Origin: a phage
Strand: one strand, 5' to 3'
Length of the DNA stretch: 64,000 nt
Sequence record: PX104378.1
The stretch's first letter is position 1; each line of letters starts with the position of its first letter. The notes beneath the pieces are model-generated. The model did no database searches and was not told the DNA's origin. It saw only the letters and a list, made by a program, of their open reading frames with translations. The position numbers and the translations under genes were made by a program. This document shows positions 1,859 through 45,708 of this stretch, piece by piece.

Positions 1859-3853
1859 ATGACTCTATTATCACCGGGTTTCGAAACGAAAGAAACTACT
1901 CTCTCCACTACCATTGTGCAATCTGCGACTGGTCGCGCGGCGCTGGTAGGTAAATTCCAATGGGGTCCAGCTTTCCAGATTATTCAAGTAACTAATGAAG
2001 TTGAGTTAGTTAATAAATTTGGTCAGCCGGATAATAACACCGCAGACTATTTCATGAGCGGGGCTAACTTCCTCCAGTACGGTAATGATCTGCGTGTTGT
2101 TCGTGTATTGAATAAAGAAAAAGCAAAAAACGCAACTACCCTAGCTGGCAACGTAGAGTTTGAAATCACAAACGAAGGTTCAAACTATAAGGTTGGCGAT
2201 ACAATTAAAGTAAAATACAAAAATTCTGAAATTGAAACTGGCGGAAAGATTACAAAAATTTCGTCGGAAGGTAAGATCAAAGGTATTTTTATTCCAACTG
2301 GTAAACTGATTGCACATGCAAAAACAATCGGGGCATATCCAAAACTGGAAGGATACACCGTAGAAATCATTTCTGATAGCGGTAACTCAGGTGCATCGAT
2401 CACTGTATCTGGAATTGTAGTCGACTCCGGTCTTCTGTTAACTGACATGGAAACTTCCCGCGCCAATATAACGAATCAAACTTTCTTGACTAAACTCAAG
2501 AAGTATGATATGCCAGCTGTAAGCGCGATCTATGCTGGTGAGATTGGCAACTCGCTGGAAGTTGAAATTCTGTCGCGTAGTGCGTTTAAGAACACAGCAC
2601 CGGATCTGACCATGTATCCTTATGGTGGCGAGCGCACCGCAGCACGCAACCTGATTCCATATGCACCGCAGAATGATAATCAATATGCGTTCATTGTTCG
2701 TCGCGATGGTGTTGTGGTAGAATCCTATGTATTGTCCACTCTGAAAGGAGATAAAGACGTCTACGGCAATTCTATCTATATGGACGACTTCTTTTCTCGT
2801 GGTGCTAGCCAGTACATCTATGCAACCGCTCAGGGGTGGGTAGATGGCTTCAGTGGCATTATTTCTCTTGCTGGCGGTGTTTCTGCCAACGAAGCAACCG
2901 CTGGTGTTGGTGCTGACCCGTTTGTTAGTGCGATGATGCAAGGCTGGGATCTGTTTGCTGAACGTGAATCTATTCATGTAAACCTTCTGATTGCTGGTGC
3001 ATGTGCTGGTGAAGGTGATGCATTCTCTACCGTACAGAAACATGCTGTTTCTATCGGTGATGAGCGTCAGGATTGCTTAGTAATGGTTTCTCCGCCGCGT
3101 AGCACTGTTGTTAATATTCCGGTGACTACTGCAATTGATAACCTGATTGCATGGCGCGAAGGTTCGGGAAACTATAATGAAAACAACATGAACATTAATA
3201 CCACTTACGCGGTTATTGATGGTAACTACAAGTATCAGTATGACAAATATAACGATGTAAACCGTTGGGTTCCGTTGGCTGCTGATATTGCTGGCTTGTG
3301 TGCTCGTACTGATGCTGTATCCCAGCCGTGGATGAGTCCGGCAGGTTATAACCGTGGTCAGATCATGAACGTGGTTAAACTGGCTATCGAGCCTCGCAAG
3401 GCACACCGTGATCGTCTGTATCAGGCCGCAATTAACCCGGTAATCGGTGCTGGTGGTGAAGGGTTTATCCTGATGGGTGATAAAACCGCTACGACTGTTC
3501 CTAGCCCGTTTGACCGCATTAACGTTCGTCGTCTGTTTAACATGCTGAAAAAGAATATCGGCGATTCAAGCAAATACAAACTGTTTGAAAACAATGATAA
3601 CTTTACTCGCGCTTCCTTCCGTATGGAGGTTTCGCAATATCTCAGCACGATTCGCTCTCTGGGTGGCATTTATGACTTCCGAGTACAATGCGACACCACG
3701 AACAACACGCCGGATGTAATTGATCGTAACGAATTTGTTGCTAGTATGTTCATCAAACCAGCAAAATCGATCAACTATATCATGCTCAATTTCACTGCTG
3801 TTGCAACTGGTGCTGATTTTGACGAAATTATCGGTCCAGCTAACCAGGCATAA
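1859..3853 (+). CDS. 18: Contractile tail sheath protein (gp18-like)
   Basis: 664 aa vs T4 gp18 659 aa; follows terminase as in T4; ATG with SD; TATAAATA upstream. Confidence 0.92.
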   Translation: MTLLSPGFETKETTLSTTIVQSATGRAALVGKFQWGPAFQIIQVTNEVELVNKFGQPDNNTADYFMSGANFLQYGNDLRVVRVLNKEKAKNATTLAGNVEFEITNEGSNYKVGDTIKVKYKNSEIETGGKITKISSEGKIKGIFIPTGKLIAHAKTIGAYPKLEGYTVEIISDSGNSGASITVSGIVVDSGLLLTDMETSRANITNQTFLTKLKKYDMPAVSAIYAGEIGNSLEVEILSRSAFKNTAPDLTMYPYGGERTAARNLIPYAPQNDNQYAFIVRRDGVVVESYVLSTLKGDKDVYGNSIYMDDFFSRGASQYIYATAQGWVDGFSGIISLAGGVSANEATAGVGADPFVSAMMQGWDLFAERESIHVNLLIAGACAGEGDAFSTVQKHAVSIGDERQDCLVMVSPPRSTVVNIPVTTAIDNLIAWREGSGNYNENNMNINTTYAVIDGNYKYQYDKYNDVNRWVPLAADIAGLCARTDAVSQPWMSPAGYNRGQIMNVVKLAIEPRKAHRDRLYQAAINPVIGAGGEGFILMGDKTATTVPSPFDRINVRRLFNMLKKNIGDSSKYKLFENNDNFTRASFRMEVSQYLSTIRSLGGIYDFRVQCDTTNNTPDVIDRNEFVASMFIKPAKSINYIMLNFTAVATGADFDEIIGPANQA

Positions 3854-31099: not shown

Positions 31100-31580
31100 T
31101 TGCTAAATCATTGCAATATTTTAGTGCCTTAGCTTGAAATTCTGCGCTGTTAAGTTCTTCATAACGGGCATAATCACCGTTTAATGCTGCCTTTCTTGCT
31201 TCTTGCTCTATCTGCATGTCAGACATGATAATACACCGATCCCGTGCTTTCATCTTCTCAAGTTGTATAGACTCTTCTTTCTGCTTGCGCAATTCTTCTT
31301 GACGCTTCTTTTCTTCTCGTGCTTTCTCTTCACGCGCTTCTTTGATTGCATCCTTGAACATCTGCGTTTGTGGTGATAAACCAACTTTAACGCGATCCAC
31401 GTCTCGACGTTCCATTTTAGAAATAAAGCACGATTCGATCTGACCATCGCTTGCATATGCTGCTTTACATTCACGAAGCAAGAAAACCGGATCTGATTTA
31501 GCATTCATCATAGCTTCCATGTTAGCACAACCAGTAAGCATGAATGCAGCCGCAAGACCAATCAGTTTAATAATTTTCAT
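31095..31580 (-). CDS. Predicted lipoprotein, charged coiled-coil rich
   Basis: Signal peptide MKIIKLIGLAAAFMLTGC with lipobox LTGC; ATGA overlap with upstream ADP-ribosyltransferase paralog. Confidence 0.65.
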   Translation of the reverse strand: MKIIKLIGLAAAFMLTGCANMEAMMNAKSDPVFLLRECKAAYASDGQIESCFISKMERRDVDRVKVGLSPQTQMFKDAIKEAREEKAREEKKRQEELRKQKEESIQLEKMKARDRCIIMSDMQIEQEARKAALNGDYARYEELNSAEFQAKALKYCNDLAK

Positions 31581-32401
31581 TTAGTCACCTCACCGAAAAT
31601 TGTAAATTGTCTACGATTCTCATCGCCGAAGGATTCTACTACGTCGTTTACCTTTATGCAAGTCCCGCGCGGTAAAATTACTTCACATTCGCAAGGATTC
31701 CACGCAATCGACCCAACAACAAAACCTTTATGATCTTTTACATCAATTACCCATGATACATTACAAGAATGTTGCATCTTTCCGGTCATCGATTCATATC
31801 GATTCTCACAATAAAGGCTAGTGCTGTTTGAAAGCCATCCTCCAAAGATGATCGGTGTCATGCTGGTCGACACAAAGTTTTTAAAGGTAAACTCCTTATC
31901 TTCAATGATACGCTCTATTGTCTGAATGTCAAGATGTTGACCGCGATAAAGAGTACCGTTTAACTTTTCGGTTTTATCCATGACGCAATCCATCAAATCA
32001 ACAATTTCTGATATCTCGTCGGTCATGTCTTCTTCCCCTAAGAGAGCACCATTTACCCATTCGTATTGTTCAGACACATAATCACAGATTGCATTATATT
32101 CTGCTGGGGTTATGTTGTTATGTTTGTAATATTTGAATACATTATCTCCAAAATCTTCGGAGTGTACTTCATACATCACATTAATGATTTTCTTGACAAA
32201 TCCATAATCTTGTGTCTCGCGCTCAAGGAAGCGGATAATCTTCACATAATCATCAAAGTTAATCTGATCGCTGATCATCTCAGTGATCATGTAACCATTA
32301 ATACCCTCAATGCCATATGTTTCGATGTAATTATCCATACGTTCCATCATTGATTCGCGTGAATCTTCTGAAAGACGAAAATCCTGTAATTGTTTGAACA
32401 T
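31577..32401 (-). CDS. Short ADP-ribosyltransferase (Alt paralog, ModA/ModB-sized)
   Basis: 274 aa; C-terminal region paralogous to the adjacent Alt catalytic domain: LYRGQ, FKNFVSTS, IFGGW, ECEVILPRG. Confidence 0.8.
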   Translation of the reverse strand: MFKQLQDFRLSEDSRESMMERMDNYIETYGIEGINGYMITEMISDQINFDDYVKIIRFLERETQDYGFVKKIINVMYEVHSEDFGDNVFKYYKHNNITPAEYNAICDYVSEQYEWVNGALLGEEDMTDEISEIVDLMDCVMDKTEKLNGTLYRGQHLDIQTIERIIEDKEFTFKNFVSTSMTPIIFGGWLSNSTSLYCENRYESMTGKMQHSCNVSWVIDVKDHKGFVVGSIAWNPCECEVILPRGTCIKVNDVVESFGDENRRQFTIFGEVTK

Positions 32402-32479: not shown

Positions 32480-34531
32480 TTACATTTTAAATTTATCTGG
32501 CATTGCGTCTACAGATACCAGATCAGCGATAAGCTGACGTAGAGTTGCCTTATCTGCTTTCTTACGTTCGGTTTTAGCTTCGGTAATAAAGCTGGAGAAA
32601 GACAGGTCAGAAGCAGGTTTAACAACACCTTCACGGATGAATGCATCACCGTCCGCGATCATCTCGCCAGATTCTTGTAATGCTGCCAGTTCATTTTTGT
32701 TCATAATATGTGCCTCAATGTAATAAGTTTCTTGTGAATCCGTCGATGCCGTAGCACGAGTTACCGTATCAAAGGATAACACAACACCGCGAGGAAGTAA
32801 AATCTCGCATTCTTTGTAAGCAAATGCTTTGTTACCTACTGGCAATACGGGGATGTTTTCCGCGCCAGCAATGGAGAAAGCAACATTAGCGCCACCTTCA
32901 CCGCGAGATCCAGCCATAGAATCTACACCAGCAACGGCACTAGCCACGTTTGCATTCCAGCCGCCAAAAATGTTAGGTGCAAGGGAAGTGCTCACATAGT
33001 TTTTAAAGTAAAACGCTTTTTGCTTACGTGCAGTTTCCCACATTTGCGACCGGAAGTCCATACCACGATACAGAATAGTACCAGGATCAAGTTTAACGCC
33101 ATAGTTGGAGAAGGCATTATCCAGTGCATCGCACATCTTGACCAATTCTTCTGGATCTGCGATGCCTTCAAACTCTTCCAGCTTACGGTCGGTTAGGAAG
33201 TTGTTCATATTGATGTATGCTGCATCGGCATATTCGCTCAACACAAAACCTTCCGCGCCCGGCAGATCAAGATCAATATCTGCCATCATTTCACCCATGT
33301 TGCTAGCAATTGCTTCAAACATACCGGAAGCAACATTACGTAGGGCATCGGTTTTAATCTGTGTGATGTGACTACGCAGCATTTCAGCTTTTACATCTGC
33401 TGGCATAGACTGGTCTACTCGATCCATTGCCAGGGCGGTGATCTTGTTTTCGAATACTTCCTCGCTCATGATTTCTTTTAAGCGTTTGATTGATGCTGCG
33501 ATAACTTCCGCAGACAACGGATCATATTGATCCTGAACTTTTACCAGTTCGCTTACTGCATATTTTGCATCGGCTTCGCTTTCAAAAATAGTACGCATGA
33601 AACCATAGCGAGTGATAATATCACTTGTCCAGTCATTCAGAGAACGAGCGGTTGAACGTTCTAAGGCTTGACGATCAATCAGAGTATTAAACTGTTTCTT
33701 AGGTTCGGCTTCGGTGATATCTTCTTCTGGTTTAAGATTAATTTTTTCTGGATGATTCACGTAGTCGCTGTTATATGTCGCTTGAGTTTTCAGCATTTCT
33801 TCTTTAGTCAAACGAGATTTAGCCGCTACGCGTTGTTCCGCTTCCGCGTTTCGTTCTTCTTCTGACACAAGACTAGCCGCATACGCCTCATCTTTAGTCA
33901 GAGATTCACCAGTAGCCTTAGATACCCAGCGATCACCTAAATCACTTTCTACTTTAGTGAACAAGGATTCATCAAGTTTAATCCCTTTAATCTTATCAAT
34001 CGCCATCCCGCGACGCTTGACAACAACTAAAGCGATCTTTTTGCTGGTCATTACTTCCTGCTGGAATACTTCAAACTTCGGTGTACGACGCACCAAACGC
34101 TCTATAACGCGCTTAACCAGTTCGGTCTTACCTTTCATGCGGGATACGTTAAAACGGAACATAACAGCGTCTAATTGCGCTTTACGGGCTGTTTCCATAA
34201 CCACATCAAAAGCACTTGCCATAACTGCAATCGGGTTATCGCCTAGACCATTTTTAAGCTGTACAATACGACCGCTTTTGTTCATTTCGCACAGTACAAC
34301 ATGTGCGGTCTTGTCACCCATACGAATGATTTTAGGTGTTTTGTTGGTGAAGTTACAAAGACGGACAATCACATCTTTATCGCGTGTCTGTACTGCAAAA
34401 AGCTGTTTAGGATTCTGCTTAGGCTTTAAGCACTGTACCGGAGCAATACTGCCAAAGTTTTCTTCCTCTTCCGTCAACAGCCATTTCTCGAAAGATTCAA
34501 TCATTAGATCGTCGATTTCTAAGTTAAACAT
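32480..34531 (-). CDS. alt: ADP-ribosyltransferase Alt
   Basis: 683 aa vs T4 Alt 682 aa; position after gp54; R-S-E motifs YRGM, YVSTS, ECEILLPRG. Confidence 0.88.
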   Translation of the reverse strand: MFNLEIDDLMIESFEKWLLTEEEENFGSIAPVQCLKPKQNPKQLFAVQTRDKDVIVRLCNFTNKTPKIIRMGDKTAHVVLCEMNKSGRIVQLKNGLGDNPIAVMASAFDVVMETARKAQLDAVMFRFNVSRMKGKTELVKRVIERLVRRTPKFEVFQQEVMTSKKIALVVVKRRGMAIDKIKGIKLDESLFTKVESDLGDRWVSKATGESLTKDEAYAASLVSEEERNAEAEQRVAAKSRLTKEEMLKTQATYNSDYVNHPEKINLKPEEDITEAEPKKQFNTLIDRQALERSTARSLNDWTSDIITRYGFMRTIFESEADAKYAVSELVKVQDQYDPLSAEVIAASIKRLKEIMSEEVFENKITALAMDRVDQSMPADVKAEMLRSHITQIKTDALRNVASGMFEAIASNMGEMMADIDLDLPGAEGFVLSEYADAAYINMNNFLTDRKLEEFEGIADPEELVKMCDALDNAFSNYGVKLDPGTILYRGMDFRSQMWETARKQKAFYFKNYVSTSLAPNIFGGWNANVASAVAGVDSMAGSRGEGGANVAFSIAGAENIPVLPVGNKAFAYKECEILLPRGVVLSFDTVTRATASTDSQETYYIEAHIMNKNELAALQESGEMIADGDAFIREGVVKPASDLSFSSFITEAKTERKKADKATLRQLIADLVSVDAMPDKFKM

Positions 34532-41861: not shown

Positions 41862-42338
41862 TTATTTTTCTTGATGCTCGCGCTCGTACTTTTCGAAATA
41901 AAATTCTACTGGCTGGTCGTGGATTGACAGTAAGCCAAAGCGTTTAGCCGCTCGCAACCCCATATTGCGCTGAATGTACTTCTGGAAGTTCTCGCGTATA
42001 CACTTACGCCAGTATTCTAAGCCCATACAGCTTTTATAAAGATTGCATTGCACACACGCCGGATTCATGTTATCAAGTATATCATGCTCCGGTTTATGCA
42101 TTCCTACAACCTTATACTTCCACGATCCATCATCATTACGGGCAATTCGTCCATTTTCATCATAGACTACTTTTGAGCGTCGTAATACTGGTTTGATGTG
42201 GTCTGCGTGCCAGCGATCCCCTAGTTCCTCGCCACAATAGGCACAACGTCCACCATATTTCATTTTCAGGATCTGGCGTTGCTCTTTCTTTGACAATTTT
42301 TTAGGTTTAGGGGCTTTCGCCCCTTCATTATCACACAT
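41862..42338 (-). CDS. HNH endonuclease
   Basis: 158 aa; CAYCGEEL ... HADHIKPV ... CVQCNLYK; 8-nt overlap with DNA ligase stop. Confidence 0.75.
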   Translation of the reverse strand: MCDNEGAKAPKPKKLSKKEQRQILKMKYGGRCAYCGEELGDRWHADHIKPVLRRSKVVYDENGRIARNDDGSWKYKVVGMHKPEHDILDNMNPACVQCNLYKSCMGLEYWRKCIRENFQKYIQRNMGLRAAKRFGLLSIHDQPVEFYFEKYEREHQEK

Positions 42339-43833
42339 CGAATACCTCTTTTACTGTATTTGCAGTGGTCTTGTCGTAGCGAATACGTTTGATGATCGGG
42401 AGAAATAAAGAGAACTCCGGTTCATCTTCTTTACGTGATTTGCTGCGGATATACCCGTTGCATGTCATCTCAATGACTTTTCCAATCAGGTTATGACGGT
42501 CAGCCCATAACATTTCTCGGTCAAGTTCATTTCGACGATCGAACGGAATTACACGTTCGATACCATCATCACCTTTTTCGGTTGTAGTGTCGGTTAATCC
42601 CGATCCGGTGTTAGTCATCATTCGTCCACACGCACTACGGACAGTAAAACCGCCTACCTTATTGGGGTCTTTACTATGCGGATATACATCAACAATTTCC
42701 GCGTCGAAGTCAATCACTTCTTTAAATTTAACCTGATCTTTACTACGGCGATCTTCAAATACACCATGCAGATTTTTAAGGATAATACCTTCTAAGCCCA
42801 TGTTTACATAGCGATGATATACTTCGCGAGCTTCATCGATATTGTTAACTACAGTATTTTCGATTATCTGAACACGAGGATCGTTAAGTTCTTCAACAAT
42901 CTGTTTTAGTTCTTCGAATCGATCTTTATATTGCTTCGTTGCTCTCTCGTTTCCGTAATACACATCACGGTCGATAACATCCCAGACAGTGTAAACAATA
43001 CATTGGGCTTCTTCTTTTGGAATAGTTCCTTTCAGTGATTTGTTGAGGATACCATTTCCGGTCTGACGATCCGCAACAACGGATTCTTTTACTGCTTCCG
43101 CTACTGGCGTTAATGGTATTTCCTCTTCTTCAAATATCCATGACAGAGTACCATCATAAACGCTCTCAACGAAGTTCTGCGCTGGTGTTTGCGAAAGGGT
43201 AGGCATATATACCAATTCGCCATCTAGAACAATTCCACGGCCTCGTAGACGCTCTAAAACAGAAAACAAATCATCCAGCCCCTGGTAGGTATTACCTGAA
43301 CGGGTATAGATTGCTAATGTTTCCCCGTCAATATCAGCCATACCACGAGCGCCATCACTTTTAAGCTGTGCATATGCCGGATATTTGATATTAGCAATAG
43401 CCTTATCAGAATATGACGATGCAAGGTGGCATGGTTGCTGGGGGATCAGTTTCTTCCATACCTTGTTTGCAGTGGTAGCGGAACAACCGCATTCCAGATC
43501 ACGATTCAGGACCATCATTGCAACTTTAGCATCATCTTCTGACAAGCAAGTCAGAGTATCGGTAACTAGCTGTAATGCTGCATTACCAGTTACTTGACGC
43601 GTGGCAAGTTTATTTTTAAAGACCTGCAATGCACCGGATAAAGACAATACAGACGAATAGCGCGATGGTTTATCGTATTTCTTTACGCCAAACGTAACCT
43701 GTTTGCAATATGCCAGATAAAAGCATTCTTTCAGCGTTTCATTGCTTGCAGATTCTTTCAGGATCTTTTCTTTCAGCGATGTTTTGTCGGTCGCTGCAAG
43801 CTGGTTAATGATATTAAGAATTGACATTTTCAC
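42331..43833 (-). CDS. 30: ATP-dependent DNA ligase (gp30-like)
   Basis: 500 aa vs T4 487 aa; adenylation motif KSDGAR (KxDGxR); N-terminus colinear with T4 gp30 as recalled. Confidence 0.9.
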   Translation of the reverse strand: MKMSILNIINQLAATDKTSLKEKILKESASNETLKECFYLAYCKQVTFGVKKYDKPSRYSSVLSLSGALQVFKNKLATRQVTGNAALQLVTDTLTCLSEDDAKVAMMVLNRDLECGCSATTANKVWKKLIPQQPCHLASSYSDKAIANIKYPAYAQLKSDGARGMADIDGETLAIYTRSGNTYQGLDDLFSVLERLRGRGIVLDGELVYMPTLSQTPAQNFVESVYDGTLSWIFEEEEIPLTPVAEAVKESVVADRQTGNGILNKSLKGTIPKEEAQCIVYTVWDVIDRDVYYGNERATKQYKDRFEELKQIVEELNDPRVQIIENTVVNNIDEAREVYHRYVNMGLEGIILKNLHGVFEDRRSKDQVKFKEVIDFDAEIVDVYPHSKDPNKVGGFTVRSACGRMMTNTGSGLTDTTTEKGDDGIERVIPFDRRNELDREMLWADRHNLIGKVIEMTCNGYIRSKSRKEDEPEFSLFLPIIKRIRYDKTTANTVKEVFDV

Positions 43834-44293
43834 CTCGTTTTGTTAAACGTTCACGAATATCATTGAGGATACTACAAAATTCCGATTCGGTCAATATGGT
43901 CTTTAACGGATCAGTTCCACCTATGCTATGACGCAATTTCTTATTTCCGGTAGCGAGTAATGCTTTACAAAATTCTGGGTTATTCCGTGCCATCGTAACA
44001 AATGCCAGATGTACCAGTCTGTAATAATGCTCACTCATTCTATGAATCGGGCGACCCTGAAAATATAGCATGTGATTCTCTATCTTTTCAGCCCTTCCGG
44101 TTCTTTTTGCTTTGCCACCGTGCATCAAAAAGATTTCTCTTTGTCTCTGAGGGTTCTTAAATCTTAGCCCCTGTAAAAATCCTTCTGTGCTGTTAATATC
44201 GCAACCAAATAGACGGAATGGTCTTTTATTGAAATTACTCAATTCACCCGATGGATAAGGTCCACCCGCATAGATATCAATTTCAGAAGTCAT
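43814..44293 (-). CDS. NADAR (YbiA-like) domain protein
   Basis: 159 aa; GELSNF..PF..G..FLQGLRF pattern typical of NADAR/DUF1768 N-glycosidase fold. Confidence 0.6.
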   Translation of the reverse strand: MTSEIDIYAGGPYPSGELSNFNKRPFRLFGCDINSTEGFLQGLRFKNPQRQREIFLMHGGKAKRTGRAEKIENHMLYFQGRPIHRMSEHYYRLVHLAFVTMARNNPEFCKALLATGNKKLRHSIGGTDPLKTILTESEFCSILNDIRERLTKRGENVNS

Positions 44294-44447
44294 TGAAACT
44301 AATCTCGCTAATCATAGAGAACGGATCATAATCGTCATGAGGAATATCGATAGTAATCGAATGAGGATTTACCCATACACCAAACTGGTCTTCTTCGGTG
44401 AATACTTCGGTATGGATTTCGTGGATGTTTACATTCATAGTTTTCAT
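44283..44447 (-). CDS. Small hypothetical protein (54 aa), not in ORF table
   Basis: ATG with SD AAGGA; overlaps NADAR start by about 11 nt; MKTMNVNIHEIHTEVFTEEDQFGVWVNPHS... Confidence 0.4.
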   Translation of the reverse strand: MKTMNVNIHEIHTEVFTEEDQFGVWVNPHSITIDIPHDDYDPFSMISEISFNDF

Positions 44448-44529
44448 AATAAAATTCCTTAATAATCAATAACTTACAAAATCATATAGCCAAAATATAG
44501 GCGGGATTATTTCCCGCCGTTTAAAATCA

Positions 44530-44894: not shown

Positions 44895-45209
44895 TTATTT
44901 ATAAATTTCGACGATCTGCGCTGGAGTCAGCCCGTCTACATTAATCAGACTATCAAGCCCAAAACTACGGAAACCTTCAACTGCAATTTCATATACTGGC
45001 AAAGATGTTTCTGATTCTTTACGCGGTTTTTCAACATTCGGAACTAACCACTTTTCGTATGTTTCAAACGGCATCAGTGCCGGATCTCTCGTAGCGATCA
45101 TCTCGCGGACAGTACCATCTTTCTTAGTAAACTGCAAAGAGTGAGTACCGACCGAAAACATTTTCTTTAGTGCTTCACGAAGTGCGATATTATCAATTTG
45201 TTCGGTCAT
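44895..45209 (-). CDS. Hypothetical protein
   Basis: Start trimmed to ATG (MTEQI; table start is TTG). Confidence 0.5.
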   Translation of the reverse strand: MTEQIDNIALREALKKMFSVGTHSLQFTKKDGTVREMIATRDPALMPFETYEKWLVPNVEKPRKESETSLPVYEIAVEGFRSFGLDSLINVDGLTPAQIVEIYK

Positions 45210-45708
45210 TATCAATACCCTTCAAATCAGTCAATAATGCTTTTGGAATACGCGTGATCGTAATATCTGCATTATTAAGAATATCAGCCCAATCACGCCC
45301 ACCATTTCGATCATATGTGTCGCAATAGTATAGATGTTTAATTCCACTGTTTGCAATTGCTTTAGCGCAATCTGGACACGGTGAAGCAGTACACCACATA
45401 CTAGCACCTTCAATCGATACACCGCTACGGGCAGCAAACAAAATAGCATTTAATTCAGCATGGATCTCGTTTTTCTGTGACCATGCACTATGTTCTGGTC
45501 GTTTTTCTGGGATCATTTTGCCGTCATCATCCAGCCAACCGCTTTTATGTGCATGACAGCTACAATTTACTTGCCCTGCTGGAGTGCCGTTAAATCCAGT
45601 AGAAATGATTCGCCCGTCTTTTTCAATTAGTGCGCCTACCTTCCACGAAACGCATTTAGAGTTCTTTGCGATTAGATAGGCGATCTGCATGTAAGTTTGT
45701 GACAACAT
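45193..45708 (-). CDS. cd: dCMP deaminase
   Basis: 171 aa; zinc-binding HAE (EIHAELNAI) and PCxxC (SPCPDCAKAI); N-terminus QIAYLIAKNSKC..SWKVGALIEK matches T4 Cd as recalled. Confidence 0.92.
   Translation of the reverse strand: MLSQTYMQIAYLIAKNSKCVSWKVGALIEKDGRIISTGFNGTPAGQVNCSCHAHKSGWLDDDGKMIPEKRPEHSAWSQKNEIHAELNAILFAARSGVSIEGASMWCTASPCPDCAKAIANSGIKHLYYCDTYDRNGGRDWADILNNADITITRIPKALLTDLKGIDNDRTN

Follow-up and report, generated by a model that had tools for sequence, protein, structure and literature searches.

We analyzed a 64,000-nucleotide (nt) stretch of phage DNA (sequence record PX104378.1, hereafter the window) with a focus on an open reading frame (ORF) at 43814..44293, which an initial annotation had described from the letters alone as a NADAR-domain protein of 159 amino acids (aa) and a possible anti-defence factor. 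The ORF is present on the minus strand, starts with ATG and encodes 159 aa; it is located between a 54-aa ORF and the DNA ligase gene. The window belongs to a Krischvirus, an RB49-like coliphage of the T4 type, and the taxonomy line of the record places Krischvirus under Straboviridae with no Tevenvirinae rank, which differs from T4. The 1.5 kb surrounding the ORF share 97.5–98.4% identity with RB49, JSE, Phi1, GEC-3S and about 55 further genomes. The RB49 records list the ORF as gene 30.3, the product of which (RB49 gp30.3) shares 99.4% identity with the window protein. Only 10 nt differences, resulting in a single amino-acid change, separate the gene from its RB49 counterpart, tblastn found homologues in 1510 phage records, and 971 representatives of the family (E<=1e-3) occur among 1.84 billion clustered proteins, from which we conclude that this is a real gene under purifying selection. 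The match to the Pfam family PF08010 (Phage_30_3) lies far above chance (131.7 bits compared to a gathering cutoff of 36, E 2.2e-38, profile positions 2–138 of 138), and phrog_652 is matched with an E-value of 4e-45. The gene is thus listed here as a gene 30.3/adfN orthologue that encodes a single-domain phage NADAR of the gp30.3 family. When we searched gene 30.3 for internal ORFs of at least 40 aa, one only was found (52 aa, 44002..44160, opposite strand), which is probably not a gene; within T4 gene 30.3 an internal out-of-frame ORF, 30.3', is annotated (2634..2861 of the T4 locus L001).

The window protein has the three-dimensional fold of YbiA and the NADAR proteins. An AlphaFold2 model built from 13 sequences reached a mean predicted local distance difference test score (pLDDT) of 93.7 and a predicted template modelling score (pTM) of 0.88, and Foldseek searches with it retrieved YbiA (E 3e-6, TM-score 0.66) and 8bau (E 1e-3, TM-score 0.61). 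A profile made from 76 family sequences matched YbiA (E 0.0023) in an alignment that keeps both LSNF and E-x6-K in register, and 18 of the 76 members individually matched the Pfam NADAR profile at E<0.01 (best 1e-6). Together with the PF08010 match and the orthology to T4 AdfN described below, the fold supports both the NADAR relationship and the anti-defence interpretation put forward initially. A phmmer search of the single window protein against the PDB sequences returned no NADAR match; its hit to the D-alanine carrier-protein ligase 7vhv (E 4e-4) falls into a low-information stretch and was discarded, as the fold search and the family profiles disagree with it. The family member P0008, for which a NADAR hit had been precomputed, was tried as a sequence bridge to 8bau and 8bat and gave a weak YbiA match only, for which reason we provide no residue map to the ADP-ribose contacts of PnNADAR (R79, W89, R93, D130, W133). 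Among metagenomic relatives (P0058, P0061, P0140, P0019, P0020) the gp30.3-type NADAR domain is fused to a calcineurin-like metallophosphoesterase, to BspA-type leucine-rich repeats or to a prolipoprotein diacylglyceryl transferase, the last possibly a gene-call fusion; tandem duplicates of the domain occur as well, and three relatives (P0024, P0038, P0077) carry N-terminal regions of about 300 aa with no Pfam match.

Next, we compared the individual residues with a census of 167 aligned gp30.3-family domains. The NADAR motif proposed initially is present (G16-E-L-S-N-F21, P25-F26, E37-G-F-L-Q-G-L-R-F45), although its spacing had been given one residue too short: three residues, not two, separate GELSNF from PF. 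The conserved N-terminal LSNF motif (L18-S19-N20-F21, codons at 44231..44242, minus strand) is found with L in 154, S in 157 and N in 159 of the domains, and the profile search aligns it to FSNF of E. coli YbiA. E37 (44183..44185, minus strand) corresponds in the BLASTP alignment to the catalytic Glu36 of T4 AdfN, and Glu occupies this position in 161 of 167 domains; the catalytic role of this Glu has been described for T4 AdfN E36, PnNADAR E43 and E. coli C7 NADAR E88 (PMC11825919, PMC11543638). The last-strand His, H122 (43928..43930, minus strand, in the context LRHSIGG), aligns to T4 H123, is shared by 160 of 167 domains and is invariant in two alignments (A1 and A2). The last-strand residue sorts the NADARs, being His in the phage (gp30.3) type, Glu in the YbiA type and Asp in the DarG1 type (PMC11543638, PMC11125620, PMC12945103). 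The catalytic Glu (E37) and the signature His (H122) are conserved, while the phosphate-binding Lys is replaced by an Arg, R44. The C-terminal helix (residues 136–157, 43823..43888, minus strand) is intact according to DSSP on the AlphaFold2 model, and the ORF extends 7 residues past the end of T4 gp30.3. This helix is absent from RB69 gp30.3, which correlates with sensitivity to DarTG1; PMC11825919 describes the RB69 truncation as well as a truncation experiment with T4.

The gp30.3 proteins are known as 'phage NADARs' and form one of four NADAR families (PMC11543638, PMC11125620, PMC12945103). Experiments have established the T4 member as a DNA ADP-ribosylglycohydrolase with specificity for guanine that neutralises DarTG1 (Nat Commun 2025, Toxins 2024, Mol Cell 2023). 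T4 gp30.3 hydrolyses ADP-ribosyl-guanine in vitro but neither ADP-ribosyl-thymine nor ADP-ribosyl-cytosine (PMC11125620, PMC12945103), and it was renamed AdfN (anti-DarT factor NADAR) by Johannesman et al., Nat Commun 2025 (PMC11825919). According to that study AdfN strips ADP-ribose from DarT1-modified DNA in vitro and does not bind DarT1, deletion of adfN renders T4 (T4-GT7 background) sensitive to DarTG1, and RB69 is rescued on DarTG1 cells when AdfN is provided in trans. Rescue is only partial with the mutants E36A and K43A, and the natural RB69 allele, which has no C-terminal helix, is defective. An independent transposon screen likewise found adfN to be conditionally essential on DarTG1 hosts. 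T4 AdfN (152 aa) and the window protein share the PF08010 family with 39% identity over the full length (BLASTP E 9e-31), a single-domain NADAR core with the catalytic Glu, the signature His, LSNF and the C-terminal helix, and a genomic location between genes 31 and 30 (ligase) of a T4-type phage. Based on these similarities, we consider it very probable that this ORF represents the T4 30.3 (adfN) orthologue of Krischvirus and encodes a free-standing NADAR-fold ADP-ribosylglycohydrolase that restores DarT1-modified guanine and thereby counteracts DarTG1. By analogy with T4, ADP-ribosyl-guanine in DNA is most likely its substrate and protection from DarTG1 most likely its role. In the proposed mechanism, the DarT1 toxin of an infected DarTG1 host would ADP-ribosylate the N2 of guanine in the phage DNA and block replication. 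The window enzyme would bind the base-linked ADP-ribose via E37, R44 and H122 and cleave the N-glycosidic bond at N2 of guanine, so that unmodified guanine is regained and replication could proceed. It would thus act on the product of DarT1 and not through binding of the toxin.

Several observations speak against this assignment. The window protein scores only 15.5 bits (E 0.021) with the NADAR profile PF08719 and does not reach the gathering score of 35.1, so that profile search on its own would not have formally proven the NADAR claim; the relationship shows at the level of the family. The phosphate-binding Lys is not found in the window protein, which carries R44 (codon AGA, 44162..44164, minus strand) in place of T4 K43, PnNADAR K50 and E. 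coli C7 K95. In the C7 NADAR the equivalent change, K95R, preserved hydrolysis in vitro while the rescue of cells from DarT1 was lost (PMC11543638), which raises a small doubt as to how efficient the Krischvirus enzyme would be in vivo. In addition, T4 AdfN requires T-even infection for its full function (PMC11825919), and its behaviour can for this reason not be transferred with certainty to RB49-type phages. We found no DarTG experiment with a Krischvirus or RB49 phage or protein in the searchable literature, and neither RB49 nor Krischvirus is mentioned by Johannesman et al. or in the supplementary material of that study and of Schuller et al.

From the same residue a different reading can be derived, namely that R44 makes the Krischvirus enzyme poor against the studied E. 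coli DarT1 and that it is tuned to another guanine ADP-ribosylating toxin, a DarT1 variant or ADP-ribosylated RNA. Besides the K95R result, this would fit the observations that RNA, too, is freed of guanosine ADP-ribose by members of each of the four NADAR families, the T4 enzyme being one of those tested (PMC12945103), and that within the superfamily protection in vivo does not follow from activity measured in vitro (PMC11125620). However, the substitution is a conservative one: the census shows Lys in 151 and Arg in 10 of the 167 domains (about 6%), and the Arg forms come from several sequences that otherwise have little in common but retain the Glu and the His, which is why Arg looks like a tolerated minority state. 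R44 is a variant within the gp30.3 family and no ground for exclusion from it. All other functional residues and the fold are intact, and within Krischvirus the selection acting on the gene is purifying, which leaves attenuation or retargeting an unlikely explanation. A related idea, that R44 (fixed in the Krischvirus sequences examined) marks a functionally distinct AdfN subclass, for example one with a changed efficiency or spectrum of substrates (further DarT1 variants, further guanine ADP-ribosylating toxins, RNA) or one that does without the T-even-specific cofactor apparently required by T4 AdfN, appears to us about as unlikely.

We also compared the window protein with the NADARs outside the gp30.3 family. 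The DarG1 antitoxins, i.e. the DarT1-associated NADARs of E. coli C7 and Geobacter lovleyi (8bat) (Schuller et al., Mol Cell 2023, PMC11543638), comprise 229–234 aa with extra N-terminal elements (PMC12945103), have an Asp in the last strand and are encoded beside DarT1. In contrast, the window protein consists of the core only (159 aa), has a His at this position and is encoded by an orphan gene with gene 31.-1 and the DNA ligase gene as neighbours. As it has no DarT1 neighbour, His instead of Asp and a core-only length, it is an orphan antitoxin-like enzyme and not a DarG1. The comparison with E. coli YbiA (PF08719, DUF1768) bears on a further explanation, in which the window protein would be a metabolic N-glycosidase that detoxifies intermediates of the riboflavin pathway or acts on free NAD or ADP-ribose metabolites and not on DNA. 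The fold similarity is clear, but the sequence match to PF08719 remains below threshold, and in place of the last-strand Glu that defines YbiA the window protein carries the His common to all gp30.3 proteins. Furthermore, the T4 orthologue, which has been characterised by experiment, targets DNA and shows a defence phenotype, and YbiA, which gives no protection from DarT1 in cells, hydrolyses guanine-ADPr in vitro too (PMC11125620). We therefore regard a YbiA-like metabolic function as highly improbable. Other phage-encoded orphan NADARs, AdfN-Bas32 and AdfN-Bas60 from T5-like phages and Vequintavirinae, resemble the window protein in being orphans, and anti-DarTG1 activity is known for the Bas proteins. 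They differ in belonging to other, independently acquired NADAR branches that function without a T-even context, whereas the window protein belongs to the gp30.3 cluster of the T4 superfamily.

Two ADP-ribosyltransferases had been noted in the same genome, and both are indeed located in the window and match PF03496. The larger one is Alt-like (683 aa, 32480..34531, minus strand) and annotated as Alt in RB49; the second (274 aa, 31577..32401, minus strand) follows directly downstream in the same orientation. Their presence suggests a scenario in which the window protein reverses or edits the modifications made by the phage's own two Alt-like enzymes, encoded 10–12 kb away. The genes are neither linked nor part of one operon, being separated by about 10 kb and many genes. 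The T4 Alt and Mod enzymes modify arginine residues of proteins and attach RNA to proteins, while the characterised NADARs cleave off ADP-ribose that is linked to a base (guanine, in some families also cytosine), and the phenotype of T4 AdfN is fully explained by DarT1. As neither evidence nor a chemical rationale supports it, we rejected a functional link between gp30.3 and the two transferases, and of the explanations considered here this one seems the most remote.

Regarding the neighbouring genes, the window locus is more compact than its T4 counterpart. T4 has two genes, 30.2 and 30.1, between 30.3 and the ligase gene, whereas 30.3 of the window directly abuts and overlaps the ligase gene; the T4 upstream genes 30.4–30.9 and rIII are absent, and gene 31.-1, which occurs only in Krischvirus, is found instead. 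The end of 30.3 overlaps the ATG start of gene 30 (DNA ligase) by 14 nt (43814..43827, minus strand, sequence ATGTCAATTCTTAA). An overlap had been predicted correctly, although its length of about 20 nt holds only for the GTG at 43833 given as ligase start in the mechanical ORF list. This GTG belongs to a Shine-Dalgarno-like GAGGTG sequence, and the better start is the ATG at 43827..43825, located 5 nt downstream of a GAGG (43836..43833) that lies inside 30.3. Since the RB49 entries AJ550428 and NC_005066 annotate the equivalent ATG as the ligase start, we set the overlap to 14 nt. On the other side, the 54-aa ORF reported to overlap 30.3 exists as well: it is gene 31.-1 of RB49 (44283..44447, minus strand; phrog_15277, E 1.2e-41), located directly upstream, and its final 11 nt overlap the start of 30.3. 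Within the phage collection gene 31.-1 is confined to 60 Krischvirus records. Compared to RB49 it shows two nt differences in all, both of them non-synonymous. We regard it as a putative operon neighbour of 30.3. The overlapping stop and start codons make it probable that 31.-1, 30.3 and 30 are co-translated in that order.

Directly after gene 31 and before 31.-1, a consensus scan detected a strong, terminator-like GC hairpin on the minus strand (44500..44518, sequence GGCGGGAAATAATCCCGCC), followed by a T-rich tail to about 44490. Judged from the sequence, this hairpin may form the upstream edge of a 31.-1/30.3/30 transcription unit. From the hairpin to gene 31.-1 no convincing sigma-70-like promoter was seen, and as the number of sigma-70-like sites between 42000 and 45500 shows no excess over shuffled sequence (10 compared to 9.8), we claim no promoter. 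Directly downstream of the ligase gene we observed an ORF for an HNH endonuclease (PF01844, 158 aa, 41862..42338, minus strand), the start of which overlaps the ligase stop by 8 nt. The RB49 annotation names it an HNH endonuclease with similarity to a protein of a Salmonella plasmid, and it is likely a mobile homing-type insertion. In the same region, the gp31.1 orthologue (106 aa, 44895..45215, minus strand), annotated in RB49 merely as a conserved hypothetical protein, matches the Pfam family WYL_2 (Sm-like SH3 beta-barrel) with an E-value of 1e-9.

The family, the fold, the catalytic residues, the biochemical activity and the anti-defence role were already known from work published between 2012 and 2025, so that the window gene adds one further orthologue, with its function assigned by analogy. 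Nothing in the Krischvirus orthologue is unexpected besides the natural Lys-to-Arg variant, which deserves attention as in the E. coli C7 NADAR the same change separated activity in vitro from that in vivo. Taken together, our findings suggest that an orphan antitoxin-like enzyme directed against ADP-ribosylation of DNA is present in RB49-type phages as it is in T4, which helps to forecast which therapeutic and model coliphages would escape DarTG1.
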